DNA from: an uncultured virus (IMG/VR IMGVR_UViG_3300030331_001986)
Lineage: Duplodnaviria > Heunggongvirae > Uroviricota > Caudoviricetes
IMG/VR virus record: IMGVR_UViG_3300030331_001986
Reading direction: 5' to 3' (one strand)
DNA: 64,000 nt
Shown here: positions 7,057 through 31,524 of the stretch, in pieces
How the letters are laid out: each line of letters starts with the position of its first letter
How positions within the stretch are numbered: position 1 is the first letter of the stretch
Notes under the pieces: generated by a model
Told to the model about the DNA's origin: nothing
Database searches by the model: none
The model's input: the letters and a program-made list of their open reading frames with translations, nothing else
Program-made: the position numbers and the translations under genes

Positions 7057-7179
7057 CTCGCAAGAGTGAGGTTTACTAAGTAAAAATGACGAATCAATGT
7101 TAGACGTGCGCTTATACTTATCAGACAGAGTGCTCATAGTAAGGGGTCAGAGGTGGTCCTGTCATTCCTCATTAGCGAG
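7057..7179 (+). ncRNA. Intergenic structured element, copy 2
   Basis: Pairings ctcgc/gcgag, tgagg/cctca, aatgac/gtcatt; core GGTTTACTAAGTAAAAATG...CATTCC. Confidence 0.45.
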
Positions 7180-7194
7180 AGCAAGGTGATTAAA

Positions 7195-7971
7195 ATGCAA
7201 ATAGAAGTTAAAAAGAAAGATATTATAGAAGCATTGAAAAATGTAGAATTAAAAGGAAAATGGGCCAGCACTGGAGGATTATCTTCAAAGTCTTTGGGTA
7301 ACTATATTCATTTCCAAATACAAGATAACAATTTATTATTAGTCAACTCAGATGAATCTACAACTGTTATTAAATCTATATCTGTGGATACAGATGATGA
7401 AGGTTCTTTCGTATTAGAAATTGATACATTTAAAAAGTATCTATCTAAGATGAATGAAGATATAAGTTTAACAGTAGGAGATACAGTAGTAATGCAATCA
7501 GATGGTAAAAGAGCAACAATGCCTATTGTAGTTCATCACCCATTCGAAGGTAGAGTAAATAGATTCATAGAAAGATGGCCGTTAAACTTTGATAGTGATT
7601 TGGAAGAAGTATTAAAGTTAGGAGTTATAGATGTAAGGTGTGGAGTTCAAGTTACTGGAGAAGAATTTCATAATGCTATAGATGGTTGTGAGATATTAAA
7701 CAACGGAATATATAAGTTAGACTTTCATGAGTCCGATGAATTAAGTAATCCTAAATTTATTATATCTTCTTCCGCTACTGTTTCTGCTTATAGAGAAGAA
7801 ATGGCATTCAGTAATTCAGTAGGTGAATCATCAACTGTTATATTCAGTGGGCCACTACACAAGTTCTTTAACAAAGATGAAATAATAAATATATTTATTG
7901 GGGATAACCAACCTATCATAATGGTTACAGAAAATAGCGCACTAATTAGAGCACCGAGATTGGGGATTTAA
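7195..7971 (+). CDS. DNA sliding clamp (PCNA/beta-clamp-like)
   Basis: About 258 aa, acidic, clamp-like repeated alpha/beta pattern; lies directly upstream of PolB; ATG 7195 has a GGTGAT SD. Confidence 0.7.
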   Translation: MQIEVKKKDIIEALKNVELKGKWASTGGLSSKSLGNYIHFQIQDNNLLLVNSDESTTVIKSISVDTDDEGSFVLEIDTFKKYLSKMNEDISLTVGDTVVMQSDGKRATMPIVVHHPFEGRVNRFIERWPLNFDSDLEEVLKLGVIDVRCGVQVTGEEFHNAIDGCEILNNGIYKLDFHESDELSNPKFIISSSATVSAYREEMAFSNSVGESSTVIFSGPLHKFFNKDEIINIFIGDNQPIIMVTENSALIRAPRLGI

Positions 7972-7972
7972 T

Positions 7973-9595
7973 ATGATAATAACATGGATAGATAAAGATA
8001 AATCAATTAAGATAAGATGGAGAGATGAAAATAGAGAGAGAAAAGAAAAGGTTATCTCTAATTTTAGACCCTATTTCTTTATACGTTCCATTGATAATCA
8101 GCCTACCACTTACAAGACTAAACATCGTATGGTTGGTAGTAAACCCATAGACCAAACTGGATTCTATGAATATAAGAAAGGTGAATGGAGAAACCTAGAA
8201 GGTTATAACTTAACTAAAGTTTTCTATACTCATCCTAAAGACATGAGGGATGCAAGAAAACCTTTTAAAAATACGTGGGAGGGAGATGTACCAATACTTA
8301 GAAGATATTGTGTAGATGAATTAAATAAAGTTCCTGAATATGAAATGAGAAAATGGTATTGGGATATGGAGTGGTTGCCCAATGGTCATAAAGATGAAGG
8401 GGCTATAACTGCTATTGGTGTATATGATAATTATACTAACAAGTCTAAGTTATACACATGGTCTTATGAAGATAAATCAGAAAAAGAAATGCTTGAAGAA
8501 TTTGTAAAAGATATACAAGAACAAGACCCCGATATGTTAATCGCTTGGTGGGGATTAAAGTCTGATGTTCCACAATTAATTAAAAGATTATTTGAGAATG
8601 ATATAGACCCAAGAAAATTATCTCCATATAAAGAAGTTAAACAAGTAGGATTCAATGCTATTGGTAAACTAAACTTTAGTAATATAGAGCAACCCATTAA
8701 AGGTAGATTATGTTTAAATTTAGATTTAGCATTTGAACGTCAATGGAATGATGCACAGAGGGGAACTTTACCAAGTGCATCATTAGATTATTGTGCAAGT
8801 GTTTCTGTTGGAGAAACTAAGAAAAAAGATTCTAAGTTTACAGATAGAAATGAATTCTTTATGAAAGCATGGGAAGAAGATACTCAAAACTATTTAGAAT
8901 ACTGTATGCAAGATGCTGAATTACTCTATAAGATAGATGAAGAAATGGGATTGAGTGAAGGTGTATTAGCAATTCAAAAACTGATTAAAGCACCTTTCGA
9001 AGATTGTTTCTTTGTATCTCACATGGGTAGCACATATTTCATGCGTAATGCATATTGGAAAGCACCAACTGGTAAAAAGACTGAGAAGAAAGAGTACGAT
9101 GGAGCGTTAATCTATGACCCATTAGACCAAGAAACAAACGGATTACATCTTAATGTAGCGGCGTTTGATTTTGCTTCTCTATATCCGTCTTGTATATTAG
9201 CAAGGAATATTTCTTGGGAAACTAAAAGTGAAACTGAAACTGATTTTGCTGTCAATTTAAAAATACCTAGAGACTTTTCTGATGTTACAGTTGAGGATTG
9301 GAAATATTATAGAACTGATAAGTTAGGATTATTACCGAATGCTATTGCTACATTAAAACCATTAAGGAAAGAATACAAATTAAAAATGTTAGAAGCATTA
9401 CAAGAAGGAAATAAGAAAGAATATGTAAAATGGAATTCAATGCAAATGGCTACTAAAAGATTGTTAGCATCTTTTTATGGAGTTGTAGCATTACAAGGAT
9501 TCGGTTGGTATGATGTAGATTTAGCCGCATCTATTACAGCCAGTGCTAGAGAAGCAATTAGAGAAGCGGCATTTAAAGTGAGGGAGTTAACATGA
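7973..9595 (+). CDS. polB: Family B DNA polymerase, N-terminal piece (3'-5' exonuclease plus motifs A and B)
   Basis: ExoI WDMEW, ExoIII YCMQD, motif A DFASLYPS, motif B KRLLASFYG; stops before motif C. Confidence 0.93.
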   Translation: MIITWIDKDKSIKIRWRDENRERKEKVISNFRPYFFIRSIDNQPTTYKTKHRMVGSKPIDQTGFYEYKKGEWRNLEGYNLTKVFYTHPKDMRDARKPFKNTWEGDVPILRRYCVDELNKVPEYEMRKWYWDMEWLPNGHKDEGAITAIGVYDNYTNKSKLYTWSYEDKSEKEMLEEFVKDIQEQDPDMLIAWWGLKSDVPQLIKRLFENDIDPRKLSPYKEVKQVGFNAIGKLNFSNIEQPIKGRLCLNLDLAFERQWNDAQRGTLPSASLDYCASVSVGETKKKDSKFTDRNEFFMKAWEEDTQNYLEYCMQDAELLYKIDEEMGLSEGVLAIQKLIKAPFEDCFFVSHMGSTYFMRNAYWKAPTGKKTEKKEYDGALIYDPLDQETNGLHLNVAAFDFASLYPSCILARNISWETKSETETDFAVNLKIPRDFSDVTVEDWKYYRTDKLGLLPNAIATLKPLRKEYKLKMLEALQEGNKKEYVKWNSMQMATKRLLASFYGVVALQGFGWYDVDLAASITASAREAIREAAFKVRELT

Positions 9596-10578
9596 AAAAG
9601 AATTGTAAGACATGTGGTTCAGAGTTTACCCTAACCCGTTCAGACAAACAATATTGTTCGGGGTCATGTAGAAGAAAAAAATATAGAGAAAAAATAAAAG
9701 CAAACAAAAAACCTATCATTAAAAAATGTCTTTGGTGTAAAAAAGATTTTAAAATTTTATCTAACATGACAAAAAAAAGAAGTTGTTGTAAAGGTGAATG
9801 CACTAAAAAATTTAAACTTCACGATAATAAAATTAGGGCGAGAAAAAGAGTTAGAGAACGCCTCGCTAAGTTACCACCTAAATATTGTGAAACTTGTGGT
9901 GTGGAGTTAGAATTATCTACATATAACTTTAACAAAATAAGATTTTGTAAACCTTGTAGGGTAAAACATCATAAAATATACAAAGATGAATATCTTAAAG
10001 AAAATAGAGAGAGGATTAGAAAAGAACAGAGGGAAAAACATGCTGAACGCATGAAGTGTCCAAAGTACAGAGAGAAACGGAGACTACAATCTCTCAAAGA
10101 AAGAGAAAAAAATAAACCTACTTATACTTGTTTGGTTTGTAAAAAACAATTCCAAAATAAATTTAATCGAAATAGATACAAAACTTGTAGTGACGAATGT
10201 GGTAAAATATATGAATTAACTAAACAAAGCACTACAGTATATAGGATAAGAAGTAGATTAACTAGGGCATTGAGAAAAAATGTAAAAAATATTTCAGAGA
10301 ATTGGCCTACTGAATTAGAATTTACCTCAGAAGATTTAATGAATCATTTTGAATCATTATTTACAGAAAAGATGAATTGGTATGAATTTAATAAAGGTAA
10401 TATACATATAGACCACATAAGACCTGTAGCATCTTTCAATCAAAAGCAATTAGAAGACACAACAAGTGAAGACTTCAAGAAGTGTTGGGCATTAGAAAAC
10501 TTACAACCATTATGGGCATCAGACAATTGTAGTAAAGGCTCATTATGGAAAGGAAAAAGATGGAGTGTGAAAACATGA
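9592..10578 (+). mobile_element. Free-standing HNH homing endonuclease with repeated CxxC...CSxxC zinc fingers, inserted in polB
   Basis: HIDHIRP...ENLQPLWASDNCSKG HNH core; several Zn fingers; ATGA overlaps at both ends. Confidence 0.85.
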
Positions 10579-11510
10579 AAGTAGTTTATGCACATACGGA
10601 TTCTCTTTATGTTCCTGTTCCTTCTATTGAGAAGGCTCAAGAAGTTAGAGAGATATTAAATACACATATACAAGAAAATGTATTTCCTAATCTTATGGGA
10701 TTAGAAGACCATCCTATGGATTTAGAGTTCGAGAAATACTATTCTGTATTAGGAGTTGGAGCAACTAGAAATAGAAATGCAGGTTTTATTAATTGGAAGG
10801 ATGGTGTTCATTTACAAGAACCTGAATTTGTTTGCACTGGTTTTACTCTAAAAAGAATTGCTGAATCTGTCATTGGGAAAGAAGTTCAAAAGACAGCATT
10901 AGAGATGTGGATTAATCAAAAGACAGAAGAAGATATTATATCTTATGTAAGAGATATGTATGATAAAGTTAGAACTGGTCAAGTTGATAAAACCGATTTA
11001 ATTAAAAGAAGTAGAGTAAAAGAAAACAGATTAAAAGTTAAATGTCCCGAATTTAAATGTAAGAAAATATATGATGTTGATTATATCAGAGGATTACTAA
11101 GTGTTTTATCTAGCGCTGTCTGTGAAAAGGAATCCTGTAATAAAAAATTAAAACAATGCACAACCGTTGAAGGAAAAAGACCTGCTTTCGGTGGAGGATT
11201 CGCAGGTGTTCTTTATTATAATGAACACGTAAATAAAAAGGATAAATTGGATGATTCATTTTATCACATGAAATGTAATTTTAAAATCGGACAACCCCAA
11301 ACATATACTAATTGGAATGGGGAAGAAAAGAAAGCAGGTTACATAGCAGTTAGAAATATAGAAGAATTAAAAGACTACGAACCTGATTGGTTATTTCTAT
11401 CAGAGTCAGAAGTTTTAAAAAAGGTAAAACCTATATTTGATGCTATGAATTGGGATATATCAAAAGTGAAAGAGGATGGGAAACAAAAAACATTGGATGA
11501 ATGGTTTTGA
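10575..11510 (+). CDS. polB: Family B DNA polymerase, C-terminal piece (motif C, thumb, PIP box)
   Basis: MKVVYAHTDSLY motif C, LEFEKYY, RNRNAG, C-terminal KQKTLDEWF. Confidence 0.9.
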   Translation: MKVVYAHTDSLYVPVPSIEKAQEVREILNTHIQENVFPNLMGLEDHPMDLEFEKYYSVLGVGATRNRNAGFINWKDGVHLQEPEFVCTGFTLKRIAESVIGKEVQKTALEMWINQKTEEDIISYVRDMYDKVRTGQVDKTDLIKRSRVKENRLKVKCPEFKCKKIYDVDYIRGLLSVLSSAVCEKESCNKKLKQCTTVEGKRPAFGGGFAGVLYYNEHVNKKDKLDDSFYHMKCNFKIGQPQTYTNWNGEEKKAGYIAVRNIEELKDYEPDWLFLSESEVLKKVKPIFDAMNWDISKVKEDGKQKTLDEWF

Positions 11511-11536: not shown

Positions 11537-12397
11537 ATGGAATATACATATCAATGGAATCCCGAATGGGAAGAAGACCCTGCTATGCCGCAGTTAAAAG
11601 TAACTAAATCGTCATTAAATACATTTGAATTTTGTAGAAAGCAGTATGAATTTAGTTACATAGAAAGAAGAAAGACAGAACCAAATATGGCTATGATTAA
11701 AGGAACAATAGTCCATAATTCATATGAAGATTTTTATAATCAATTTGATTTAAAAAAAGCAGAAGAATTAGATGAAAATAGTGTCTATGATTATTGCATG
11801 GGATTATTTCCAATAGATGATTATGGCGACCTTTATCAAACTATTTCTGCGTTTGAAACTGAAAGATTTATTCAATCGAGAAAAGAAGATATTTTAGATA
11901 CTTTCTTACCAGTGGGCAACGAAATACAATGTAATGCGAAACTAATAATTCCTAAAGATGTTGGGATGTCAGGTAGAGGAACTAAGTTTATGTTAAAAAG
12001 AGATTACACAGTTCATCTTCAAGGTATTATAGATAGAGTGTTCCAAGAAGGTAATAGTATAATCCCTGTAGAGTTAAAGACTGGAGCATGGAAGGATAGA
12101 AAACAAGCACACATGAGAAATGAGATGGCCTTTTATAAAGTGTTAATGGAAGCCGACCCTGATTGTAACTTAGGAGAAGTAACCCATTGGGCTTGGTATT
12201 ATCCTGATTCTAATTATTTTCAATTAGAAGAAGTTAAGAAAGGTAATGTAAATAGAATCAAAAGAAGAATAGGCGTGTTAATTCATGCTTATGAGCAAGG
12301 CGTATTTCCCGCTTCATACCATTACGCTAAATGTCAATATTGCTCTTATACTGCTCTTTGTGATTCAGCACAACAGTCAGAATTGTGGGAGTGGTGA
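11537..12397 (+). CDS. Cas4-like PD-(D/E)xK exonuclease with Fe-S cysteines
   Basis: FEFC...GIIDRV...VELKTG...CQYCSYTALC; no CRISPR context. Confidence 0.85.
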   Translation: MEYTYQWNPEWEEDPAMPQLKVTKSSLNTFEFCRKQYEFSYIERRKTEPNMAMIKGTIVHNSYEDFYNQFDLKKAEELDENSVYDYCMGLFPIDDYGDLYQTISAFETERFIQSRKEDILDTFLPVGNEIQCNAKLIIPKDVGMSGRGTKFMLKRDYTVHLQGIIDRVFQEGNSIIPVELKTGAWKDRKQAHMRNEMAFYKVLMEADPDCNLGEVTHWAWYYPDSNYFQLEEVKKGNVNRIKRRIGVLIHAYEQGVFPASYHYAKCQYCSYTALCDSAQQSELWEW

Positions 12398-12398
12398 T

Positions 12399-12548
12399 AT
12401 GGCTAAAGGGTATAAAAGAATAAAAGAATGCAAAGTATGTAGTGAAAGATTTGAACTACATAAGAAATCAAACAAATGTAAAAGTTGTGGCGGACAATTA
12501 AGGATAGTGGTAGATAATAGAAACATAAGAAAATTAGGTGATATATGA
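12399..12548 (+). CDS. Small zinc-ribbon protein (49 aa)
   Basis: GGTGA SD; CKVC...CKSCGG. Confidence 0.7.
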   Translation: MAKGYKRIKECKVCSERFELHKKSNKCKSCGGQLRIVVDNRNIRKLGDI

Positions 12549-21055: not shown

Positions 21056-21466
21056 TTATTCAACCTCCATTGTATATATTATCTCAATAGTGTCACTAGT
21101 TGAAAAGTTTCCTATTCCTTCGAAGTTGACTCTAGCGAGCATAACATTTTCTGTAGGATTATAATCATAACTACTAGTATCTATTAATGCCATCTCAGCA
21201 TCAGTAGGAAGATTACCAAATATTCCCATCTCTCTAATTGTATATCCTTGTAAAGTTGAGCCAGTGAAACTACTAGTAAATTCTACAACTTTATCATCTG
21301 AGGATATGGCGGTATTAGTGGCAGATGTACTCAAAGGCACATCTAAATCAGAAGCGGTTGGATTAGTTCCTCCACCACCAGTTCCTACTTTTGTTGTTCC
21401 ACTTGTTGCCCCAAACATTTCTCTCAAAAATAAGGCTACTTTCTTTTTTGTTGTGTGTGTTATCAT
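21056..21466 (-). CDS. Tail-collar/baseplate-associated protein
   Basis: KVGTGG...GYTIREMGIF...MLARVNF pattern of tail-collar fibre proteins. Confidence 0.6.
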   Translation of the reverse strand: MITHTTKKKVALFLREMFGATSGTTKVGTGGGGTNPTASDLDVPLSTSATNTAISSDDKVVEFTSSFTGSTLQGYTIREMGIFGNLPTDAEMALIDTSSYDYNPTENVMLARVNFEGIGNFSTSDTIEIIYTMEVE

Positions 21467-24400
21467 GTAAAGTCCTCGTCTGTTATTATTGTCGTTATTG
21501 TTTCTAATGGCCCCATTGTATCTCCGAAATCTAACTTTCTTGTTGTTAAGGTTTGAAATCCTAATGTGAATGCATCACTGTCCGCTAAACTAATCTTCTT
21601 TATTACTAGTCTTAATTCTTTCAGTTTGATTGAATCGAAAAAGTCTAAAGGAGCAGTAGTAGCACCGAATTGAGAACCCCTTATAGAAGCAGAATTAGAT
21701 TTATTTTGAATTGATAATTCAGCAAATCTATTTGCTAAATCTTTACGATAGGTTCCCACTTCTAACTCAACTAAATTTTGGGTATCCCTTTTAATTTCAT
21801 ATATTTTATATTGTCCTTTAACAATACCTTCTTGTGGGAAATCTAAAGTTACTAAATCTCCAGCCTTAATAAAATCAATACCTTTATTTGACATTTTAAT
21901 TGTGAATCTATCTTCACCATCTGAATGTACGGATAATAAACTCTTTGCTCTTGAGTCTACATCATCTTGTGAAATAAGTTCCATATTTACTTCTTCGAGA
22001 GTTTTTTTACCAAACTTGTCTATACTCTTACGATTACGCTTAATAGATTTTACCCCACTACCATAAACTATTATTTCATTAAAAAGGTCAAAAGTTGATT
22101 TATTTCTAGTTACCCCTGTAATATTCACATTAGGACTAGAGTATGATAAATCTATAGGTTGTGAATCTAAAGTTGTTCTTTCTTTTGTGAGGGATATTCC
22201 TGTTTCATCTATTCTTAATTCTTTTTCTTTATATCTAGCGGCAAAGGTAGCGGCCGAAAATATATCAACTCCTTGATAATTAGGTGAAATAAAATAAGGA
22301 TATTCTTTATTATCTCTTATCTCATAAATAATATCTTCTTCACTCAATAAATTATTAATAACATCTTCAACTTCTTCTCCTATTACTATAGTTGAACCTA
22401 TTTTTAAAGTAGTTGGTTCATTAACTTTAGTTACTAGAGGACTTTTAAGAGAGAATATTTCTCCAAAAGAAACTATACCATACATAGGTTGACTCGCACT
22501 ATCACTTAGAGTTAACCTACATAGTGCTCTATCATCATAATAATCTGCCTCTACCCCTATAGACATTTTTTGTTTTGATACTCCATCTGTTAATAACATA
22601 TTAAATGATGAACCTGATTTGAACGTATTTCTATTTCCCGTTGGATTAAATAAATGAATATAATCTCTAAGAACAGTAAATGTATTATTTAATAATGTTA
22701 TATTTCCAGAGGATAAATCAGCGTCATTGCCAAACTTACCTGCTATCACCAAAGAAGTATCACTGATAATAGACTTAACATAGCACCTTTGATGGTCTAA
22801 TAAAATAACATCTCCTTCTTTTAATTCATCTGTAAATTTAGTGCTACTTCCAGTTAAAGTAGTATTACCTATATCCATATTAGAAATAGTTCCAGTTAAA
22901 GTTTGTTGTTGTGAGTGTCTACCATCCATATCTATAGCCACATACATAGACATAATTGCTTCATTTTCTCCTTGTTCTCCCGAAGTTCTTAAATCAATAT
23001 TATGAATACTACTTAATTCCCCACCAGTGAACTCACCTTTATTGTTTAATCTATTTACTGGAGGAATAAAACCATACATAGAGGGACTTTGCGGTTCTTT
23101 AGTAGTTTGTGCAGATAAACAATATAAGTTTAATTCATTGGGTGATTCGGGCCATATACAAGTTTCAGCGGGGCGCATAACTCTATAATCATTAAAAAAA
23201 CTTAAATTACCAGTATTATCTATAGGCAAATTATCTATTAATAATTCATGAGCCACAGCATTACCCGTTATCTCTCTTCTATGTTCTTTAACAAAAAGAA
23301 TATGTTTAGGGTCTACCATAGTATCAGCCATAGAAGTTATAGCCCCGCCACTTGCATCTATTATCCCTTTAGCATTAGGGAGAGTGTCATTATTTACATG
23401 AACAGAGCCACCATTTTTAAATGGCAAATGGTCAACTAAAGTAGGCTGAGTATCAATAGCCGTTCCTAAATTACCAACTAAATACATACCTGTTAAATCT
23501 ACAAAATTTAAAAAGCCATTATTAGTTCCATTAATAATCCTAAGCCATCCTTCTTTACTATTACTTCCGTTTATAGAATTTATACTGTTAACTCCTATTT
23601 TAGTTACTGCAAGACTGCCGTCAGTTAAATCGCCATTATAATCGCCTAACTGTAAATGAGGCACAAAAGCACCATAAACTCCATCGGCAACATAACTAGT
23701 TCCATCAGGGTCTTCGAAAAATGTTTCAGTTTTAGTATCAGAACGAAGTTTAGCATAAGGATATGAATCATGTGTTCCAGCAGTAATAAAAGTATATTCA
23801 CCACTATTAGCGTTTGCTAAATCTGAATCTGTTATTCCTCCCTTACTGTTTCCATATGGTATATCGGATAAAGGCCCATTAGTTAGGAAAAGGTCAACAT
23901 TACTTTTAGCGCCCCCTGTAGTGCTAACACTTATCTCAAAAGTATCAGAATCAGTTACAGTAACAACATAAGCCCCTTCAGGAATACCATCTCCCATTAC
24001 TCCTTGTCCCTCTGTTATGGTTCCGCCAACAGCCCCGCTGTGAGTATCTATTGTTGTACTATCATTATAATCACAACTTCCAACAATAAATACCGCTGGT
24101 TTGGCAAAGGGAAATCCTTCCGCATCTACTTGTTTAGAAATTTTAAATTTACCTCCTAATGGTATATTAGTAATAGATTGTTCAATATTATATCGCCCTA
24201 AAGCAACTACATCGCAATTCTTGTAAGGATTATCACCCGTTTGAACCCACTCTAAAACATTAGAGGCGTGAGAATATTCAGTTGCTATAGGATTTTGTAT
24301 AGTATTATCTGCTCTATTAACAAGATAACTTTTTACTTGCATAGCATTAACAGTTCTACCTGATTCTGTCGAATTAGACGAAGTAGTATGAGCCGAAAAA

Positions 24401-27400
24401 TATGCCCTAAAAGAAGGTGGTAAAACAAAATGAGAAGAAAAAGTAGTGCTTAATGCCGTAAAGTTTTCATTAAAATGAGTCATAAATTTAGACTCAGTTA
24501 TTTTATTAGAGGTAAAAGTTAATGTGGTATTAGAATTAGTAGCAGTAGTATCTACACTTAATGTAAAACATGTGGTGCTGTTTATAGCAACAACAGTAGC
24601 ACCTGCTGGTATTCCAGTACCACTAACAATTAAACCTACAACAATATTAGCATTAACATCATGAGTAATATGTCTAACACTTGTGGATGAACCATCAGAT
24701 AATCCCGAAGTATGATTAGTATCACAAGTAGTATCTGTAAAGCCCCCCGCATCAGTCCCCTCTCCATCTGCAAATACAGCGCTATTGATACTTCCATAAG
24801 GTGTTTGTTTATAGACTCCAGAAGTATGATGCATTCCGTTAATCATACCTTGTAACATATTAAGGTCATTATCTCCTACTTCTGTAAATGTATTTTTACC
24901 ACCTCTACCTTTAGTTCTAAATGTAAAGAACGAATCATGTCTATCTTGATTTGCTAAACTAACTGCTCCATCTCCGCAAACATATACATACCCATAATAT
25001 TTATTTCCAGTTCCATCTGATTTTAAAATAGGATGCCTAGCAACAGTTCCAACTATATCTATAGTGCTACTACTACCACTATCATTCATAGCAAAAACCT
25101 TACCAAGATAATATCCTTTATCTGTAAATATTTGGTCGCCTATTTCTAATAACCCGCTAGGTGCGGCACTTACAGTTAAAGTATCATTTCCATCATAAGC
25201 GGTTATAAGTAGATTAAGAGCCTTTAGAGGTTGATACCTTGTATATTCAAAATTAGGAGTATTAAGTTTAGACATATCACTTGGTAATCTCTCAGGGTCT
25301 ATTAGATTGAAATGCCAATCATAAGTGCAATCTATTAAACGCATCAAACCAAATCTTTTCATTTCGGATGGAAGAATAGATGCTTCACTAATCGGTAAGT
25401 TTTCGTATTGGTCATCTACTTCTTGTTCATCAGGTAAACTACCTTCATAGTATTCATGTAAAACAGAACTAGATTTTGTAGCACTTTTACCTTTTAAGAA
25501 TATATTATAATCTGTAAACTTCCTAGCAATAGCCGTACTATCAACTGTACCAGAATAACCAATGTGATGTTTTCTAGCCATAGAATCGGGATACATATCG
25601 GATGGAGAGAATATAGACAATCTTAATGTTTTAGGGTCAGGTAATTCCCAATGGTCTTTTGCTCTAGTAATACCGTCAAACTTAGGTCCAATAAACGGTT
25701 CATATAGAACTGTAATATGTTCAAAACCAGTAGTAGTATCTGCTGAACCCCCCACTCCAGTTTTAGTATCTAATGTTTCAACTCCTATCTGAGTAAAAGG
25801 CATCTGTGCTACTTCCATTGTATATTTACTACTAGATAAACTTCCTAACTTGAATGTTCTATTGCTGTTTTTATCAGGCCATCCACCTAACTTAACCCAT
25901 CTATTAGCCAATCTAGTTGTAAAGTTTGCACTATCACTAGCGGCAGGGTCAATAAAGGCCGCATCATCATCAGCACCATCCCATTCTATATCATAATCAT
26001 GAGCATTAGAAGCCCCGCCAGCCGCAGTAAACTTTTGATAAATTAAAGAAGTATCTATACTATCAACTGGCCCCTCTGTATCTTCTTGCCAATCACCCCC
26101 TCTATGGTTATCATGAATTCTAGGCATAAATCTAGGATACAATAAAGTGTTATAATCAGAATGTTCTGGAGTAGCGATAGTAGTTCCATGTTTACTAAAG
26201 TCGGCAAAGTTACTACCTGTTACTGGTCTAAAATCTCTTGATTCGGGTGAAAGATATTCTAAGAAATATGGATGTTCTCTAATTTTATTTGTAGAATCAA
26301 ATAAGTTTACATTACTATTACTTGCTTCGTTAAAATATTCACTATTAAAAGCAAAATCATTATTATGATAACCATATGGATATTTAATAACTTTATCAGT
26401 TCCGTATTTAGCATCTTCAATTCTATAAGCGGTAGCATAACCGTTTATTCTTCCCTTTTCAGATGTATATGCTCCCTTAATTTGTCCATCTCTTTTTCTT
26501 CTATTTATGTAAGATAATGCTAAACCTTTTTGTAAACCAAAATATCTCCATTTAGTATTACCATATCTGTATATGTAATCTGAATATATTGCATGTCCAG
26601 TGGCATTATGGCTAACACCATTAACTGTATTATTAGTAAAATAATGATATATTCCACCATTCCATTTAATAGGTTTACATATATTATCTACTGCATTAGG
26701 ACTTGATAAGTTATTATTAACTAAAGTTAATACACCGCCTTGACTTAATCCTTGTGTATTTAGAAGATATAACCCTTGAGTAAAATAATCAGTTAATACT
26801 GTTATTCTAATGGTTGCCCCTTTAGATTCATCATCAGGTCCACCTGCTATAGAACCTGATTTAGCCTTTCTCATATAAAGAATAACTTCTTTATCATTAC
26901 TATCAGTAAATACATGAGCGATAGAAAATACTCCATTATTATGTTCATTAGAACTACCTTCTATTTTTATTCTCATACCAGCCTCTAGTTTTTCTAAAAA
27001 GGCTCGCCCTGCCGTTTCATCAGAGGATATTACATGTGTTTTAAACGCTGTTCCACCAAAATCAGAAATAGAGGTTGTATCTCCATCAAATGTTATATCA
27101 GCCGCACTATGATATGTTGGTGGACTAGCAGAAGAAAAATATTTGTAAATACCTTCACCACTATTAACAGCCTTAAATAAAGGTCTATCTAAAGTGAAAC
27201 AAGTAGCGTCATTAGCAATTCCACCAGTAGAACTAGCACTAATATCTATAATTCTGCCGAATAAATTACCCTCAGAATCGAATATAAAATCTCCCTCTTT
27301 TAATTCTTCAATCCATGTAGTGTAAGAAAATATACCATTATGCCCACTCGGTATAGAGTCAGAACCTAAAAATGTAGTAGCATCTGGGAAATGACCAATA

Positions 27401-30400
27401 TGAACTAAAGTTTTATCTCTTCCATCTAAAGGATTATCATCTACTCTACCTAAAACCGCTGGACAAATTGGTGCAACTTCTATAACAGTTCCTTCTTCTT
27501 TAGAAGAAACACTAACAATATCATAATCAGTTAATGAATTAACAGTGTGTAAATTTACATAATCTATATTGTTACTCTTTGTCACCTCATCTGCTAAATG
27601 ACAATAAAAGGGCAAATCAAAATCTACTCCATTTGGAGCGTGTATATTATATCCTTTTGCTAAAGGATGAGGACTACTAGAAGAACCTATTAAACTATTA
27701 CCTTCTAAGACTGGGGCATTTTTAGCGCTATTAGTGAGAGCATTTCCACCATTAAAAATTATACCTTTATTACCTGTACCACTTAAAGAATTAACTCTTA
27801 TAGTCGAATAAGGGTTTGCACTCATGGCTTTAGCAAAACTAACTATATTTCCTCTTATATTTTGTTTTGCTATTTGACTAGTAGTAGCATTAGTATCAAC
27901 TAAGAAACTTGGTATAACATCCTCTAGCAATCCTGAAAATTGACTACTAATCATAACGGCTTCATTTTCTTTTAATCTAGTTGGTATTCCTTCTTCTAAG
28001 TCATAAGTATTACTTGAAGGTACATTGAAAATTCTACCAATATAGGTTCCTAAAGAAGTGAATAATAAATCCCCTACAGCCGCATCAATTAAAGCATTAC
28101 TATCTTTAACTAATACAATTTGAGTTGCCCCTACCTCATAAACTCCATTACTATCAGTATGACTAACTTGCCCATAAAGAGCCATCCTTTCTATTGGCCC
28201 AATCGTTGAATAAACTATATCTTCTGTAAATTTAAAGTTTTTATTTACTATTGGCCCTAATAATTTAGAACTAGAATCTCTCCCTCTTATTTTTAGTTTA
28301 AACGCCCCATCCTCTATTAGTTGCTCTACACTTTCTATAGTACCAGTAAAAACCTTACGCTCTATATCTAAATTACCTCTAAAATAATCTATGTAAGATG
28401 TTACTCCCCTTACATGCGAAGAAGCCGAACTGGAAGGTGAACGTGCTAAATCATATCTAAATCTTACTCCCGTTCCTTCTGGGTCATCACCACTATTTAT
28501 TGGATAACCATATAAAGATACATTAGATAATCCGTCTGCATAAGGAAGATAATCTGTTTTATTATATAGTTCTAAAAATCTTTCATCTTTTAAATGGGTT
28601 TTTAATTTAACAAAGTTATTATTTTTATCTCCGTATTCTACTTTAATTCTATGTCCTGAAATATTACTACCTTTAAACACTAAATTAATATCATTTATTC
28701 TACTAAAGTTTACTTTCTCTAAAGCGGTTTCTCCAAATTTTAAAGACGCTCCAGCAGTTTCAAATAAATTTTTAAAATTAGTAACATTTCTATTTGTTGG
28801 TTGAGCAGAAGCCCCATCATAATCTAAGTCATAATTAGATATATCAGTATCAATATCTAAATTAGTTAATAAGTTATCTGCTAAAAAGGAGTATTTTCTT
28901 CTAAAACCATCTGTGTTAAAATTAGGAACAGAACCAGCAACTAGGGTCGTAGTGTTATATTCAGTATCAGTTTCTTTTCTCCATAGTCTAACTGCAAATT
29001 CTTGAGAATCAGAACTAACATTACTTATTTTATCTGGAACAATATGATATAGAACATCGTCTACATTAACAGTAAAAGACTCAAATAATGGGTCTAAACG
29101 ACTAGTAGTATCTGTATTAGTTTTAGGAATAGAACTTTCTAACACGAATCTTAAATCTTGATTATTTTCTAAATTTATAATATCAATAGTTGCCCCACCG
29201 TTATAGTCAAAAGTTCCTATTGGAAAGTCCCTAGATACATCAAATTCTTCATCCTTAATTGTCCTATGAATAGATATTTTATCTCCTTCTTTAAACTTTT
29301 TAGCAAGTATTTTTTGTATATCTATTAGAGTAATATCTACATATCCACCACTAGTAGTTACAGATTCAAATAAATCTATATTTATGATATTGGGCATTAT
29401 GCAATTAGTTAATGGTGATTTAGTATAATGCATATATCTAGTCTGTCCTATTGCGTGACCATAATAATAACCGTCATCATCTTTAGGTCTATGTGCCATC
29501 CTAAAGGCATCTTTCATTTTAAAGAATCCACCTGAAGTTGAACCGTAATGGGACGGACTAAAAACACAATACATCTTATTGTGGTCTAAATCTACAGCGT
29601 GTCCAGTAAAAAATAAAGCCAAATTGGTAGAAGTAGAAGCCCCACTAAAATCATCTGCACTCATTGTTAAAGTTGTGGCCGTTGAATTATTACCTTCTAC
29701 AATGTAAATACCAGTTTGCGCTCCTGTTAATCTAAATCTTGAATCTTTTAAGATACCTTGTAATCCCCAATTAGTAGTAGAACCGTCTAAATCTGTAATA
29801 GAATTATCAAAACTAACATCATTACTACCTCCACCATCAAGAAAAACTGTATCGGGAGAGCCATTAGTTAATGATAAAAAATCACTAGTATAAATCAAAG
29901 TATCTACAGCAGTTGGGTCATCTGCTTTATACAACATATCTACAACGGTTGCTTCCATTGTAAAGGGACCATAATCTATAACGTCAGTTCCATATTCAGG
30001 AGCAGTAACAAAAACACTGTAAGCATAATGATTAGAAATGCCTGTAGAATAAGTTGTCCTTAATACATATCGTGTTGAGTGTTCTAATCTATCTTTATTA
30101 TTTAGAAAGTAAAAGAAAGGACGTGAAACATGAGTGTTAGCATGATGTCTAGTATTATCTTGAGTTCCTTGTAACCCATAAGCGCATGCCACTAAAGTTT
30201 GATTATCAGAATCAATTTTGGGTAAATTAGAATCTAAAGAAGAAAAGATAGCGTATTTAGTGTCTTTAGGTATATCTCCTTTTATAGCAGGTTCAAATTG
30301 TATCCCATCACCTAAAACTTCATTTTCTAATAAGTTAGTTATTTTAGCAAAATGGTGAGTATTAGGGTCATCTGCAAAAACTAAAACCCATAAGTGGTCT

Positions 30401-31524
30401 ATATTATCTTTAATAAATACAGGAGTTTCATCAGCATAACTAGAGTCAGGTATATCTGTTCCTTCAAAACCCCTTACAACATTCGCTACCAAAGTAATAG
30501 AATTAAAAGCAGTAACTAACATATGTTCATTATCAACTATTAATACTTGCCCCGCAGTTGGGTTAGTGCCTCCTTGTAAAGTTATAGTTGTAGCAGTAGA
30601 AGTTACCGCCCCGTCTAAAGTGCCACCATCTGTAATAAATCTTTGACCGCTATCTCTATCTACATCATAGGTTTTAATAGCATTACCTCTAGTAGTTTCT
30701 AAATTAGATAAGTATTCATTAACAGATGTTATTCCTGTATTGTTATTAGGATATATCCTATTAACAGCGTTATATGTTTGTTTAGTAAATGTGAGTTCGG
30801 TTGACCCACTTCCAGTTGCACTAGCAGATAAAACAAAAGTAGTCGTATTAGTTACCGAAGTAACAGTTGTTCCATCAGGTATATTAGTACCAGTTACAGA
30901 CATTCCAGCAAATACACCAGTAGTGTCTCCGCTATTTGCAGTAGTATTACTATTTAGAGTAAAAGTCGCTTTAACCTGATGAGCCTGATTAATACCAGCA
31001 GTAGCGTGAGTTAACACATCATTATCTGCTTTATGAATTTCATAACTGTTAATTGTTTGATATATAACTTTAAGTTCTTCGTTATTTGCTAAAGCAACAA
31101 TATTATTTTCTTCTAAAGTTATAACGGTTGCAGTTAAAGATTTAATTGTACCTACTAATGCTTGGCTATCATCATAAACGAAATCTCCTACTTTAAACCT
31201 AGTAGTAGCATCAACTGTATCTACTATTATAGTTTTAGTAGTATCAGCACTAATAGCCCCATTGACTAAAACACCTGTATCATAAAAGCCACCAGAAACA
31301 GTAAAGTCAGCAAAGTCTTCACTAATATTTCCTCTTAACAATAAAGGATTTACAGGAACTTTATACAAAGATTTTGTTAAGAAATTTTTAGTTGGATAAT
31401 ATTGAGCATGAGCAGAATCAGTTTGTGTTATATCTGTATCAGTTGTAGTTGTGCCTAATGCTTGTTCTGTTTGACCTTTACGCATAGCAAAAACATTGGT
31501 ATTAGCAAAACTGTTTATTTTCAT
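21463..31524 (-). CDS. Giant (3353 aa) tail tip/baseplate hub protein with many inserted beta modules
   Basis: VFTGTIESVE...LKIRGRD hub-like segment; C-terminal SIDKFGKK...KAGDLVTLD...YKIYEIK; internal repeats. Confidence 0.75.
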   Translation of the reverse strand: MKINSFANTNVFAMRKGQTEQALGTTTTDTDITQTDSAHAQYYPTKNFLTKSLYKVPVNPLLLRGNISEDFADFTVSGGFYDTGVLVNGAISADTTKTIIVDTVDATTRFKVGDFVYDDSQALVGTIKSLTATVITLEENNIVALANNEELKVIYQTINSYEIHKADNDVLTHATAGINQAHQVKATFTLNSNTTANSGDTTGVFAGMSVTGTNIPDGTTVTSVTNTTTFVLSASATGSGSTELTFTKQTYNAVNRIYPNNNTGITSVNEYLSNLETTRGNAIKTYDVDRDSGQRFITDGGTLDGAVTSTATTITLQGGTNPTAGQVLIVDNEHMLVTAFNSITLVANVVRGFEGTDIPDSSYADETPVFIKDNIDHLWVLVFADDPNTHHFAKITNLLENEVLGDGIQFEPAIKGDIPKDTKYAIFSSLDSNLPKIDSDNQTLVACAYGLQGTQDNTRHHANTHVSRPFFYFLNNKDRLEHSTRYVLRTTYSTGISNHYAYSVFVTAPEYGTDVIDYGPFTMEATVVDMLYKADDPTAVDTLIYTSDFLSLTNGSPDTVFLDGGGSNDVSFDNSITDLDGSTTNWGLQGILKDSRFRLTGAQTGIYIVEGNNSTATTLTMSADDFSGASTSTNLALFFTGHAVDLDHNKMYCVFSPSHYGSTSGGFFKMKDAFRMAHRPKDDDGYYYGHAIGQTRYMHYTKSPLTNCIMPNIINIDLFESVTTSGGYVDITLIDIQKILAKKFKEGDKISIHRTIKDEEFDVSRDFPIGTFDYNGGATIDIINLENNQDLRFVLESSIPKTNTDTTSRLDPLFESFTVNVDDVLYHIVPDKISNVSSDSQEFAVRLWRKETDTEYNTTTLVAGSVPNFNTDGFRRKYSFLADNLLTNLDIDTDISNYDLDYDGASAQPTNRNVTNFKNLFETAGASLKFGETALEKVNFSRINDINLVFKGSNISGHRIKVEYGDKNNNFVKLKTHLKDERFLELYNKTDYLPYADGLSNVSLYGYPINSGDDPEGTGVRFRYDLARSPSSSASSHVRGVTSYIDYFRGNLDIERKVFTGTIESVEQLIEDGAFKLKIRGRDSSSKLLGPIVNKNFKFTEDIVYSTIGPIERMALYGQVSHTDSNGVYEVGATQIVLVKDSNALIDAAVGDLLFTSLGTYIGRIFNVPSSNTYDLEEGIPTRLKENEAVMISSQFSGLLEDVIPSFLVDTNATTSQIAKQNIRGNIVSFAKAMSANPYSTIRVNSLSGTGNKGIIFNGGNALTNSAKNAPVLEGNSLIGSSSSPHPLAKGYNIHAPNGVDFDLPFYCHLADEVTKSNNIDYVNLHTVNSLTDYDIVSVSSKEEGTVIEVAPICPAVLGRVDDNPLDGRDKTLVHIGHFPDATTFLGSDSIPSGHNGIFSYTTWIEELKEGDFIFDSEGNLFGRIIDISASSTGGIANDATCFTLDRPLFKAVNSGEGIYKYFSSASPPTYHSAADITFDGDTTSISDFGGTAFKTHVISSDETAGRAFLEKLEAGMRIKIEGSSNEHNNGVFSIAHVFTDSNDKEVILYMRKAKSGSIAGGPDDESKGATIRITVLTDYFTQGLYLLNTQGLSQGGVLTLVNNNLSSPNAVDNICKPIKWNGGIYHYFTNNTVNGVSHNATGHAIYSDYIYRYGNTKWRYFGLQKGLALSYINRRKRDGQIKGAYTSEKGRINGYATAYRIEDAKYGTDKVIKYPYGYHNNDFAFNSEYFNEASNSNVNLFDSTNKIREHPYFLEYLSPESRDFRPVTGSNFADFSKHGTTIATPEHSDYNTLLYPRFMPRIHDNHRGGDWQEDTEGPVDSIDTSLIYQKFTAAGGASNAHDYDIEWDGADDDAAFIDPAASDSANFTTRLANRWVKLGGWPDKNSNRTFKLGSLSSSKYTMEVAQMPFTQIGVETLDTKTGVGGSADTTTGFEHITVLYEPFIGPKFDGITRAKDHWELPDPKTLRLSIFSPSDMYPDSMARKHHIGYSGTVDSTAIARKFTDYNIFLKGKSATKSSSVLHEYYEGSLPDEQEVDDQYENLPISEASILPSEMKRFGLMRLIDCTYDWHFNLIDPERLPSDMSKLNTPNFEYTRYQPLKALNLLITAYDGNDTLTVSAAPSGLLEIGDQIFTDKGYYLGKVFAMNDSGSSSTIDIVGTVARHPILKSDGTGNKYYGYVYVCGDGAVSLANQDRHDSFFTFRTKGRGGKNTFTEVGDNDLNMLQGMINGMHHTSGVYKQTPYGSINSAVFADGEGTDAGGFTDTTCDTNHTSGLSDGSSTSVRHITHDVNANIVVGLIVSGTGIPAGATVVAINSTTCFTLSVDTTATNSNTTLTFTSNKITESKFMTHFNENFTALSTTFSSHFVLPPSFRAYFSAHTTSSNSTESGRTVNAMQVKSYLVNRADNTIQNPIATEYSHASNVLEWVQTGDNPYKNCDVVALGRYNIEQSITNIPLGGKFKISKQVDAEGFPFAKPAVFIVGSCDYNDSTTIDTHSGAVGGTITEGQGVMGDGIPEGAYVVTVTDSDTFEISVSTTGGAKSNVDLFLTNGPLSDIPYGNSKGGITDSDLANANSGEYTFITAGTHDSYPYAKLRSDTKTETFFEDPDGTSYVADGVYGAFVPHLQLGDYNGDLTDGSLAVTKIGVNSINSINGSNSKEGWLRIINGTNNGFLNFVDLTGMYLVGNLGTAIDTQPTLVDHLPFKNGGSVHVNNDTLPNAKGIIDASGGAITSMADTMVDPKHILFVKEHRREITGNAVAHELLIDNLPIDNTGNLSFFNDYRVMRPAETCIWPESPNELNLYCLSAQTTKEPQSPSMYGFIPPVNRLNNKGEFTGGELSSIHNIDLRTSGEQGENEAIMSMYVAIDMDGRHSQQQTLTGTISNMDIGNTTLTGSSTKFTDELKEGDVILLDHQRCYVKSIISDTSLVIAGKFGNDADLSSGNITLLNNTFTVLRDYIHLFNPTGNRNTFKSGSSFNMLLTDGVSKQKMSIGVEADYYDDRALCRLTLSDSASQPMYGIVSFGEIFSLKSPLVTKVNEPTTLKIGSTIVIGEEVEDVINNLLSEEDIIYEIRDNKEYPYFISPNYQGVDIFSAATFAARYKEKELRIDETGISLTKERTTLDSQPIDLSYSSPNVNITGVTRNKSTFDLFNEIIVYGSGVKSIKRNRKSIDKFGKKTLEEVNMELISQDDVDSRAKSLLSVHSDGEDRFTIKMSNKGIDFIKAGDLVTLDFPQEGIVKGQYKIYEIKRDTQNLVELEVGTYRKDLANRFAELSIQNKSNSASIRGSQFGATTAPLDFFDSIKLKELRLVIKKISLADSDAFTLGFQTLTTRKLDFGDTMGPLETITTIITDEDFT

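Follow-up and report, generated by a model that had tools for sequence, protein, structure and literature searches.

An apparently ancient two-gene family B DNA polymerase in a magrovirus-like genome, and the HNH-like gene that probably entered its gap later

Not every replication enzyme is encoded by a single gene. The family B DNA polymerase (PolB) of Methanobacterium thermoautotrophicum, as Kelman and colleagues are said to have found in 1999, is encoded by two genes without inteins, which makes it a precedent for a split inside the catalytic domain; it belongs to a cellular archaeon, in which it differs from the virus considered here, and we know of no cargo between its halves. A mobile gene between two halves is familiar from Aeromonas phage Aeh1, whose nrdA “genes in pieces” with mobE were reportedly described by Friedrich and colleagues in 2007. 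There the order is nrdA-a, mobE and nrdA-b, and the enzyme is functional with its parts made as distinct polypeptides (Crona et al., 2010; PMC3045599, in part); together with T4 39/mobA/60, Aeh1 nrdA/mobE is a precedent for genes split by an endonuclease (PMC2988022, in part). In Aeromonas phage 25, a seg-type (GIY-YIG) homing endonuclease gene lies between 43A and 43B (Petrov et al., 2010, through the review PMC2988022, in part). Its products gp43A and gp43B copurify and are active, and the relative 44RR, which has no such endonuclease, is split as well; the endonuclease may thus have entered a gene that was in two pieces beforehand (PMC2988022, in part). “Fractured genes” of marine metagenomes are replication-enzyme genes broken up into two parts that flank a gene for an endonuclease (Dassa et al., 2009; PMC2677866, in part). 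Finally, the DNA polymerase (DNAP) gene is split inside the catalytic domain in seven group B magroviruses, at a position similar but not identical to that in M. thermoautotrophicum, and this split was taken as support for the monophyly of the group (Philosof et al., 2017; PMC5434244, in part). Here we examine a locus of this kind in a stretch of 64,000 nucleotides from an uncultured virus (IMG/VR record IMGVR_UViG_3300030331_001986), the whole of which we call the window, where the genes for two PolB pieces, polB-N and polB-C, flank a third open reading frame (ORF), ORF2, for a putative HNH-like nuclease. We favor, at a probability of roughly 0.8, the reading that this is an anciently split, two-gene PolB and that the HNH-like gene invaded the split locus later, likely by homing.

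Taken together, the two pieces have the make-up of one family B DNA polymerase, with exonuclease and polymerase domains and motifs A, B and C, and the break falls after motif B and before motif C (Table 1). Both the coordinates and the place of the break had been given by an original prediction made from the sequence alone, and the ORF listing agrees with them. On the 856-position phrog_262 profile, polB-N covers positions 15-561 and polB-C 574-727; the match of polB-C to PF00136, with an expect value (E) of 8.2e-4, lies under Pfam's cutoff. Against structures in the PDB, polB-N aligns to residues 15-523 of Thermococcus-type PolB, its residue 530 corresponding to residue 523, and residue 2 of polB-C falls on residue 535 of chain 1qht in a weak alignment (E 0.27), so that the break would lie in the loop just before the strand bearing motif C. 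polB-N ends in ...FKVRELT and its stop codon. Where fused relatives read ...KVKEM-GY-EICYGHTDS, the split genes read ...KVREL-T-stop / M-KVVYAHTDS, with no residue gained or lost; on this alignment the break appears to stand in place of a conserved Gly-Tyr before motif C. Across 24 aligned sequences, M1, Y5, H7, T8, D9 and S10 of polB-C are invariant.

Both halves are under strong purifying selection, with pairwise ratios of nonsynonymous to synonymous substitution (dN/dS) against 10 relatives of 0.075-0.148 for polB-N and 0.036-0.182 for polB-C, and for this reason a two-polypeptide enzyme is the best reading. Moreover, both frames, the start codon and the catalytic residues are kept throughout a clade whose members are down to about 50% identity, which is strong evidence that both halves are needed. 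The original prediction of a polymerase made of two polypeptides thus holds: one chain carries the catalytic Asp of motif A and the other carries motif C, and no route to a single chain emerged. An Rfam scan of positions 9300-10900 with E values up to 10 gave three chance-level rows and no intron family, and the interval 9592-10578 is fully coding, consisting of one ORF in a third frame. Intein blocks were not found at the end of polB-N or the start of polB-C when these were compared with fused relatives and PDB polymerases; the absence of both an intron core and intein ends had likewise been anticipated. In RNA library X20, two contigs with 95-99% likeness, from a related strain, cover 9169-9336 in polB-N and 10739-10951 in polB-C, neither reaching the junction, and no spliced joint was seen in the contigs of the sequencing runs, among which those from RNA do not cover the junction. 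Judging by this conservation and by the precedent of gp43A and gp43B of phage 25, the halves probably assemble into one enzyme.

Two peculiarities of the C piece deserve mention in their own right. Motif C reads HTDS where the usual form is DTDS, so that a His takes the place of the first Asp; all 24 C pieces have it, as do the fused relatives P0172, P0173, P0175, P0176, P0182, P0183 and P0185, and the polymerase of halovirus Serpecor1 has GDTDS. Residues ~150-190 of polB-C (window 11020-11150) form a Cys-rich insert in the thumb region, CPEFKC...CEKESC, which is present in the window's subgroup, different in others and missing from the 262-269-aa (amino acid) C pieces of a sister subgroup.

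The age of the split can be judged from its distribution. A scan of viral contigs with polB-N returned 519 relatives, of which the best 80 (47-100% identity) were kept; nine of these loci are cut by a contig end before the site and 71 reach it. The polB-N stop lies at the equivalent position, 0-6 codons past ...AAFKVREL, in 69/69 contigs that bear it, and polB-C begins with an ATG aligned to residue 1 in all 56 loci that have both halves, whatever lies between them. What lies between varies greatly: the distance from the polB-N stop to the polB-C start ranges from -4 to 2204 bp, with a median of about 351-355 bp (n=56), and is at most 0 bp in 2 loci, 1-150 bp in 4, 151-700 bp in 42 and more than 700 bp in 8. 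One relative, L010, has no insert at all. Its junction, GAGTTAACAtgaAAGTAGTT, equals the window minus 983 bp, and its polymerase is still split. The original prediction had held that deleting the 983 bp between two repeats at the window's junctions would leave the pieces split and coupled by ATGA; the deletion yields GAGTTAACATGAAAGTAGTT, and L010, which has precisely that junction, is a natural example.

Fused forms appear to be both rarer and more distant than split ones. In a collection of 5.8 billion proteins, polB-N found 870 matches at E<=1e-10, and among the best 120 (52-91% identity) there are 117 proteins of 539-584 aa, three shorter fragments and no fused protein. Among the fused proteins, P0172 (835 aa) shares 41% identity with the C piece and P0173 (827 aa, 12 members) 38%; with the N piece, P0175 shares 49% and P0176 46%. 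A search of IMG/VR with fused P0173 found no fused locus; the relatives that it returned do not exceed 47% identity, and five of them match either polB-N or the two halves together. In a polymerase tree of 44 rows (a quick IQ-TREE search without bootstrap), the 36 split rows form one clade, with a value of 91 in the Shimodaira-Hasegawa-like approximate likelihood ratio test (SH-aLRT); this clade joins fused P0172, P0173 and P0175 at 97, and P0176 and the outgroups fall outside. One splitting event at the base of the clade would be the simplest reading of this tree, with moderate support. The same split codon with or without the HNH-like gene, the empty yet split L010 and the single split clade together indicate that the split is ancestral.

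This distribution sets the locus beside its described counterparts in different ways. The nearest analogue outside the lineage is phage 25, likewise a two-gene family B replicase with a free-standing endonuclease gene between the halves, and the order of events that we favor, split first, is the one suggested for phage 25 against 44RR. Its record NC_008208 gives 43A (498 aa), a “homing endonuclease” of 267 aa and 43B in that order, with a group I intron noted in 43B. Phage 25 differs in being a T4-like phage of bacteria and in having a seg-type/GIY-YIG rather than an HNH endonuclease. Moreover, its 43A ends at a point that aligns to about residues 500-507 of the N piece in the window, which is at motif B and some 33 residues upstream of the split seen here; since the split sites differ, the two splits are independent events. 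Fractured genes carry split-intein halves that re-ligate the protein, whereas the pieces in the window have no intein residues at either end. In the group B magroviruses, as here, the DNAP is split in its catalytic domain into adjacent N and C genes, and the use of that split as a clade marker by Philosof et al. (PMC5434244, in part) agrees with the single split clade found here. The text of that paper, as far as available, has no occurrence of “HNH”, and neither it nor the Aoguangviridae profile (PMC10768690) gives an account of what lies between the halves, which the figures may show. What is reported here on the diversity of cargo, on an allele with no insert, on copies of the junction and on recent exchange comes from the present analysis.

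Table 1. Features of the split polymerase locus and genes found in the polymerase gap of relatives (window positions, unless a locus is named)
Feature	Position or locus	Strand	Basis
Sliding-clamp (PCNA-like) gene	7153..7971	+	phrog_947, DNA polymerase processivity factor, E 4.3e-7
polB-N, 540 aa; exonuclease domain, motifs A and B	7973..9595	+	PF00136 E 1.2e-19; PF03104 E 3.5e-5; phrog_262 E 8.3e-75
Motif A, DFASLYPS, in polB-N	9167-9190	+	Read from sequence
Motif B, KRLLASFYG, in polB-N	9455-9481	+	Read from sequence
GGGAG, Shine-Dalgarno-like core in last polB-N codons, 5 nt 5' of ORF2 start	9582..9586	+	Sequence; putative function
Junction repeat, copy 1, AACATGAAA, across polB-N stop and ORF2 start	9589-9597	+	Sequence
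ORF2, 328 aa, zinc-ribbon and HNH-like (putative)	9592..10578	+	PHROG profiles, invariant residues
Four CxxC...CxxxC zinc-ribbon repeats, ORF2 residues ~5-204	9604-10203	+	Sequence
Core D274-H275...N303...N312 of ORF2 C-terminal HNH-like domain, after helical linker	10411-10527	+	Alignment
GGAG, Shine-Dalgarno-like core in ORF2 3' end, 9 nt 5' of polB-C start	10562..10565	+	Sequence
Junction repeat, copy 2, AACATGAAA, across ORF2 stop and polB-C start	10572-10580	+	Sequence
polB-C, 311 aa (MKVVYAHTDS...); motif C, remaining palm, thumb with Cys-rich insert	10575..11510	+	phrog_262 E 8.2e-11
Motif C, YAHTDS, in polB-C	10587-10604	+	Read from sequence
Gap cargo: window-type zinc-ribbon/HNH family	window, L003, L032/33		phrog_1035, phrog_1271
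Gap cargo: second HNH family	L027, L017-19		HNH_5 E 1.3e-4; phrog_7785 E 8e-8
Gap cargo: MazG	L024, L037, L038		PF03819 E 5.7e-11
Gap cargo: PD-(D/E)XK_3 nuclease	L014		E 3.2e-23
Gap cargo: many small Cys-rich proteins	several loci		No family match
Gap cargo: 735-aa protein	L005:6620-8827		No Pfam, PHROG or PADLOC match

ORF2 is a free-standing gene, with its own frame and start, outside any intron or intein and between conserved genes. Its designation as an HNH gene in the original prediction stands in part. In its favor are matches to the PHROG profiles phrog_1035 (endonuclease VII, E 3.3e-12) and phrog_1271 (HNH, E 1.3e-10), together with an invariant D-H...N...N: over the C-terminal 115 residues, alignments of 17 and 18 sequences keep D274, H275, P278, FKKCWAL, N303 and N312, that is, a His after an Asp and two downstream Asn/His metal or structural residues. 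Against it, Pfam HNH models matched 0/17 family members (ORF2 and 16 relatives) at E<=0.01, and fold matches are weak. A PDB sequence search with ORF2 gave chance-level rows and no nuclease. The AlphaFold model has a mean predicted local distance difference test score (pLDDT) of 84.7 overall and 86.9 in the C domain; Foldseek found no match to the whole model at E<=0.001 and weak HNH-type rows for the C domain. On balance, ORF2 is likely a putative HNH-like nuclease. A scan with ORF2 as query found 27 loci, 10 adjoining polB-N and/or polB-C and 17 without polB within 3 kb; the 10 include lineages in which polB-N retains only ~49% identity to that of the window.

The manner in which ORF2 is fitted between the polymerase genes is informative. 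As had been noted, it overlaps both pieces, each junction being an ATGA overlap of stop and start, and a 9-bp repeat is present at both: polB-N and ORF2 each end ...ACA TGA, and the next gene begins ATGAAA. The repeat, AACATGAAA, occurs exactly twice in the window where 1.61 copies are expected, and at least two copies arise in 49 of 100 shuffles; the copy number of so AT-rich a word is within chance, and its identical register on both junctions is not. Each downstream gene also has a Shine-Dalgarno-like core ahead of it (Table 1). Among relatives such a core stands at -18..-4 of polB-C in 32 of 40 distinct sequences, against 283/2000 random 15-mers (14%).

Longer copies of the junction occur in a distant lineage: in all seven cassette loci examined, four of which have their own polB-N tail on the contig, a copy of the polB-N tail forms the end of the HNH gene. 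In L110 the two tails, GCAAAGGAGATGGAAGAAtgaAA in polB-N and GCAAAGGAGATGGAAGTAtgaAA in the HNH gene, differ at one of 23 nt, with 16 nt as the longest exact repeat. The resemblance extends to the peptides, the HNH proteins ending in KAKEMEV, KAKEMKV or GAKEMKI and polB-N in FKAKEMEV or FAAKEMEE. In L097 a further, internal copy of the tail of polB-N, 42 nt long and 35/42 identical (83%), stands directly 5' of the HNH gene and behind an inserted 144-aa ORF. The tail copy retains a Shine-Dalgarno-like core and the ATGA overlap before the following gene, and the window's AACATGAAA would appear to be a short version of these junction copies. As a side observation, L097:2199-3615 holds stacked cassettes, in which the 144-aa ORF, with its hydrophobic stretches, is followed by the 42-nt tail copy, the HNH gene and the junction copy at the HNH stop; the 42-nt copy is fused in frame to the start of the HNH gene.

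HNH-like genes are by no means the only occupants of the gap. It holds 0-4 tightly packed ORFs on the same strand; the leading ORF as a rule touches or overlaps the polB-N stop, and in most cases the final one extends over the polB-C start. Single-linkage BLASTP grouping of plus-strand gap ORFs of at least 30 aa gave 44 clusters, 17 with at least three members, although some of the small singletons are probably not genes. The recognizable types are listed in Table 1. A role in defense found no support, a PADLOC search of 14 cargo proteins giving two marginal rows only (E 0.0016 and 0.0039). Insertion is concentrated here: the gap between polB-N and polB-C exceeds 150 bp in 50 of 56 loci, compared with 15 of 51 for the junction of polB-C and the Cas4-like gene (median 80 bp) and 20 of 80 for that of the clamp gene and polB-N (median 7 bp). 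The polB gap is thus the main insertion hotspot of the replication operon and not the sole one. We found no literature text describing the cargo of this gap, although figures or supplements of the magrovirus papers may already depict intervening genes; a cargo hotspot between PolB halves therefore appears to be unreported, the split polymerase itself having been published. Two further details of these insertions may be recorded. In L005, whose polymerase is 97-98% identical to the window's, a single ORF of 735 aa fills the gap. The junction of the clamp gene and polB-N (7971/7973) is tight in the window and, with inserts of 157-1279 bp in the relatives counted above, forms a weaker second site.

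The contents of the gap have, as the closest genomes suggest, been exchanged recently. The 25,373-bp genome G001 matches the window at 99.87% over 15,532 bp and at 99.96% over 9,363 bp, and between these identical polymerase flanks it has a different segment of 374 bp, encoding a 126-aa Cys-rich protein. Three of the four mismatches in the downstream 9,363 bp, at 10578, 10598 and 10658, fall in the first 84 bp of polB-C, for which an even spread gives a probability of about 3e-6; such clustering fits co-conversion and, equally, any recombination breakpoint. Further different inserts stand behind N pieces 85-97% identical to the window's in L005, L006/L008, L009 and L014. Contigs of X13, a marine run of 2025, follow polB-N as far as 9589 and polB-C from 10575 with other sequence between, and runs X9 and X11 bridge the upstream HNH junction. 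Close genomes are accordingly polymorphic for presence and absence at a single site, as the window against G001, the empty L010 and the X13 breaks attest. The two halves have also diverged discordantly from the window, N by identity 96% and C 79% in L006, N 85% and C 90% in L010, which makes the junction a recombination breakpoint. In L004 (polB-N 98%), the first 37 nt of the HNH gene are common with the window apart from one mismatch and then switch abruptly to another zinc-ribbon/HNH gene, pointing to a breakpoint inside the cassette. The junction thus bears the marks of recurrent gene exchange and, in keeping with the original prediction, could be a homing site.

A consistent account of these observations can be offered as follows. 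The polB halves would have parted when a large clade arose and stayed apart since, and would be translated as separate polypeptides, each from its own Shine-Dalgarno-like core with ATGA coupling; on assembly, one chain would contribute motifs A and B to the active site and the other motif C. Into this already split locus a zinc-ribbon/HNH-like gene would have come as an invader. ORF2 would most likely act as a homing endonuclease, cutting the junctions of co-infecting relatives that have no HNH gene and being copied into them by repair, which may carry short flanking tracts along with the cassette. The 9-bp repeat would be the remnant of a duplicated junction; since such a duplication gives the cassette the stop/start overlap of polB-N, the expression of polB-C would be preserved.

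Several findings weigh against this account. The single-split clade rests on an SH-aLRT value of 91 from a quick tree search. Cassette 3' ends resemble the polB-N tail at <=0.02 in just 8 of 57 loci, representing about four independent types, and in the other 49 are no better than random windows, so tail mimicry seems limited to some cassettes, mainly those with HNH genes. Most cargo genes are not nucleases, and it follows from this and from the many cassette ends unlike the polB-N tail that turnover need not be driven by HNH genes; other junctions of the operon, as between clamp and polB-N, take inserts too. Lastly, no immunity substitution is visible: the first 83 nt of polB-C do not differ between the window and the empty L010, and within this stretch no substitution tracking the HNH gene was found among HNH-positive alleles, the third base of the Thr codon of HTDS varying independently of HNH presence.

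Among other explanations, the one that survives best is that a homing endonuclease invaded the Gly-Tyr site and split polB at the base of the clade, to be later lost, replaced or joined by other genes, in which case present HNH genes may descend from the original invader. HNH relatives in the gap of such divergent polymerase lineages would fit, as would the second HNH family in L027 and L017-19 and the colinearity of the fused sisters, which have lost no residues; the same question has been raised for phage 25 and 44RR (PMC2988022, in part). On the other hand, HNH genes of the ORF2 type occupy the gap in 6 of 80 polB loci, besides a handful found by the HNH query, and most gaps hold unrelated small genes or none. 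We regard such an origin as possible, at odds well short of even, and it is compatible with a later invasion of the split locus by the present HNH-like gene rather than a true alternative to it.

An extension of our favored reading, late invasion of an ancient split, is more tentative still. The polB junction may be a dedicated plug-in site for cassettes, kept split as a protected recombination and cargo hotspot, where breaks made by HNH enzymes shuffle cassettes and polymerase halves among co-infecting viruses. Each cassette would be expressed from the replisome operon, and at least the nuclease cassettes would end in a junction copy with its Shine-Dalgarno-like core and ATGA, so that cassettes, of which 0 to 4 are seen, could stack freely without silencing polB-C. 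This is a speculative proposal, and we hold it as a minority view.

It is unlikely that the gap is a general accessory (“moron”) islet turned over by ordinary recombination in its flanks, with ORF2 as mere cargo, possibly a domesticated nuclease. Such an islet would accommodate the breadth of cargo, from MazG and the PD-(D/E)XK_3 nuclease to zinc-ribbon peptides and the 735-aa protein, as well as the cassette ends unlike the junction, the inserts gained by neighboring junctions and the lack of a visible immunity substitution. It does not explain why two distinct HNH families recur at one site, why HNH cassettes specifically end in polB-N tail copies, why this gap is occupied so much more often than its neighbors, or why mismatches cluster at the cassette edge.

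Far less probable is the analogy on which the original prediction had leaned, in which insertion of the HNH gene itself split polB in this genome as mobE split nrdA in Aeh1. The likeness is real: in both, a free-standing HNH-type gene lies between the halves of an essential enzyme gene in one operon, and here it fills the gap exactly, with ATGA coupling on both sides and a 9-bp direct repeat flanking it, in the manner for which Aeh1 nrdA/mobE and T4 39/mobA/60 are the precedents (PMC2988022, in part). In Aeh1, however, the insertion made the split and related phages are intact, whereas an alignment of polB loci, which that prediction had proposed, shows one and the same split codon in each of the 56 relatives that have both halves, irrespective of an HNH gene, the insertless L010 included, and fused forms only at a distance. 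That no fused protein occurs among the best 120 of the 870 protein relatives and that the split rows form one clade speak against it as well. A further difference from Aeh1 is that the pieces in the window have no interaction peptides derived from the cassette, their ends matching the fused relatives residue for residue. Least credible of all is a single full-length PolB restored by RNA splicing, protein splicing or ribosomal frameshifting, for although the pieces are colinear with fused relatives and one added base would join them in the empty allele, the interval is a single ORF in a third frame, without an Rfam intron match or intein residues at its borders, and the spacers, which vary from -4 to 2204 bp and contain unrelated coding genes, exclude a shared frameshift or splice.

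As to its source, the window looks like the genome of a group B magrovirus (Aoguangviridae-like), a tailed virus of marine archaea, a placement made by published description: its gene set, base composition and opposed modules match that description. Aoguangviridae have genomes of 31.5% guanine plus cytosine (GC) with two modules transcribed oppositely, and the legend of their map includes “PolB-NTD/CTD” and “endo” (profile by the ICTV, 2023; PMC10768690). The window shares with these and the group B magroviruses a GC content of ~32% (range 0.29-0.38), divergent modules, a replication factor C (RFC)-like clamp loader, a clamp and ligases; gene orientation and GC skew flip near 18 kb, giving two opposed modules. 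Besides two ATP-dependent DNA ligases, the clamp and its loader, it encodes a Cas4-like nuclease, an ERCC4 nuclease and, among structural genes, those for a tail tube, capsid, prohead protease, portal and terminase; a scan of 24 window ORFs turned up no MCM, primase or GroEL. The sequencing runs that contain window DNA are marine metagenomes, and the best matches in a phage collection are cyanophages and haloviruses at 25-27% identity. The clamp gene stands directly 5' of polB-N in the same replication operon, a junction whose median gap in relatives was given above (n=80).

Some further genes of the window may be mentioned. One ligase (132-1637, 501 aa, with three ligase domains) belongs to the replication module and the other (49030-51510, minus strand, 826 aa) to the structural module, which agrees with a published remark that magroviruses gained ligases more than once. 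The structural module also contains one ORF of 3353 aa (21463-31524, minus strand), which may encode a giant tail or fiber protein. A small ORF 3' of the Cas4-like gene (12285-12548) encodes a Cys-rich, zinc-ribbon-like peptide (…CKVCSERFELHKKSNKCKSCGG…) that resembles the small Cys-rich proteins from the polB gaps of relatives.

In kind, the case is an ordinary one, and it is modestly interesting in detail. It corrects a tempting causal story, in that the endonuclease did not break polB, and it indicates that a replicative polymerase can remain split throughout a clade diverged to ~50% identity. The fused, split-empty and split-occupied alleles form a natural series for the tolerance of the PolB palm to a nick at the Gly-Tyr before motif C. 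The gap, moreover, is a compact cargo site, highly variable, in viruses that abound in the ocean and infect uncultured archaea, a place to seek accessory or counter-defense genes and one that lets recombination be followed in natural populations. Should ORF2 indeed cleave the junction, archaeal viruses would have yielded a new homing enzyme of the HNH type, guided by zinc ribbons.

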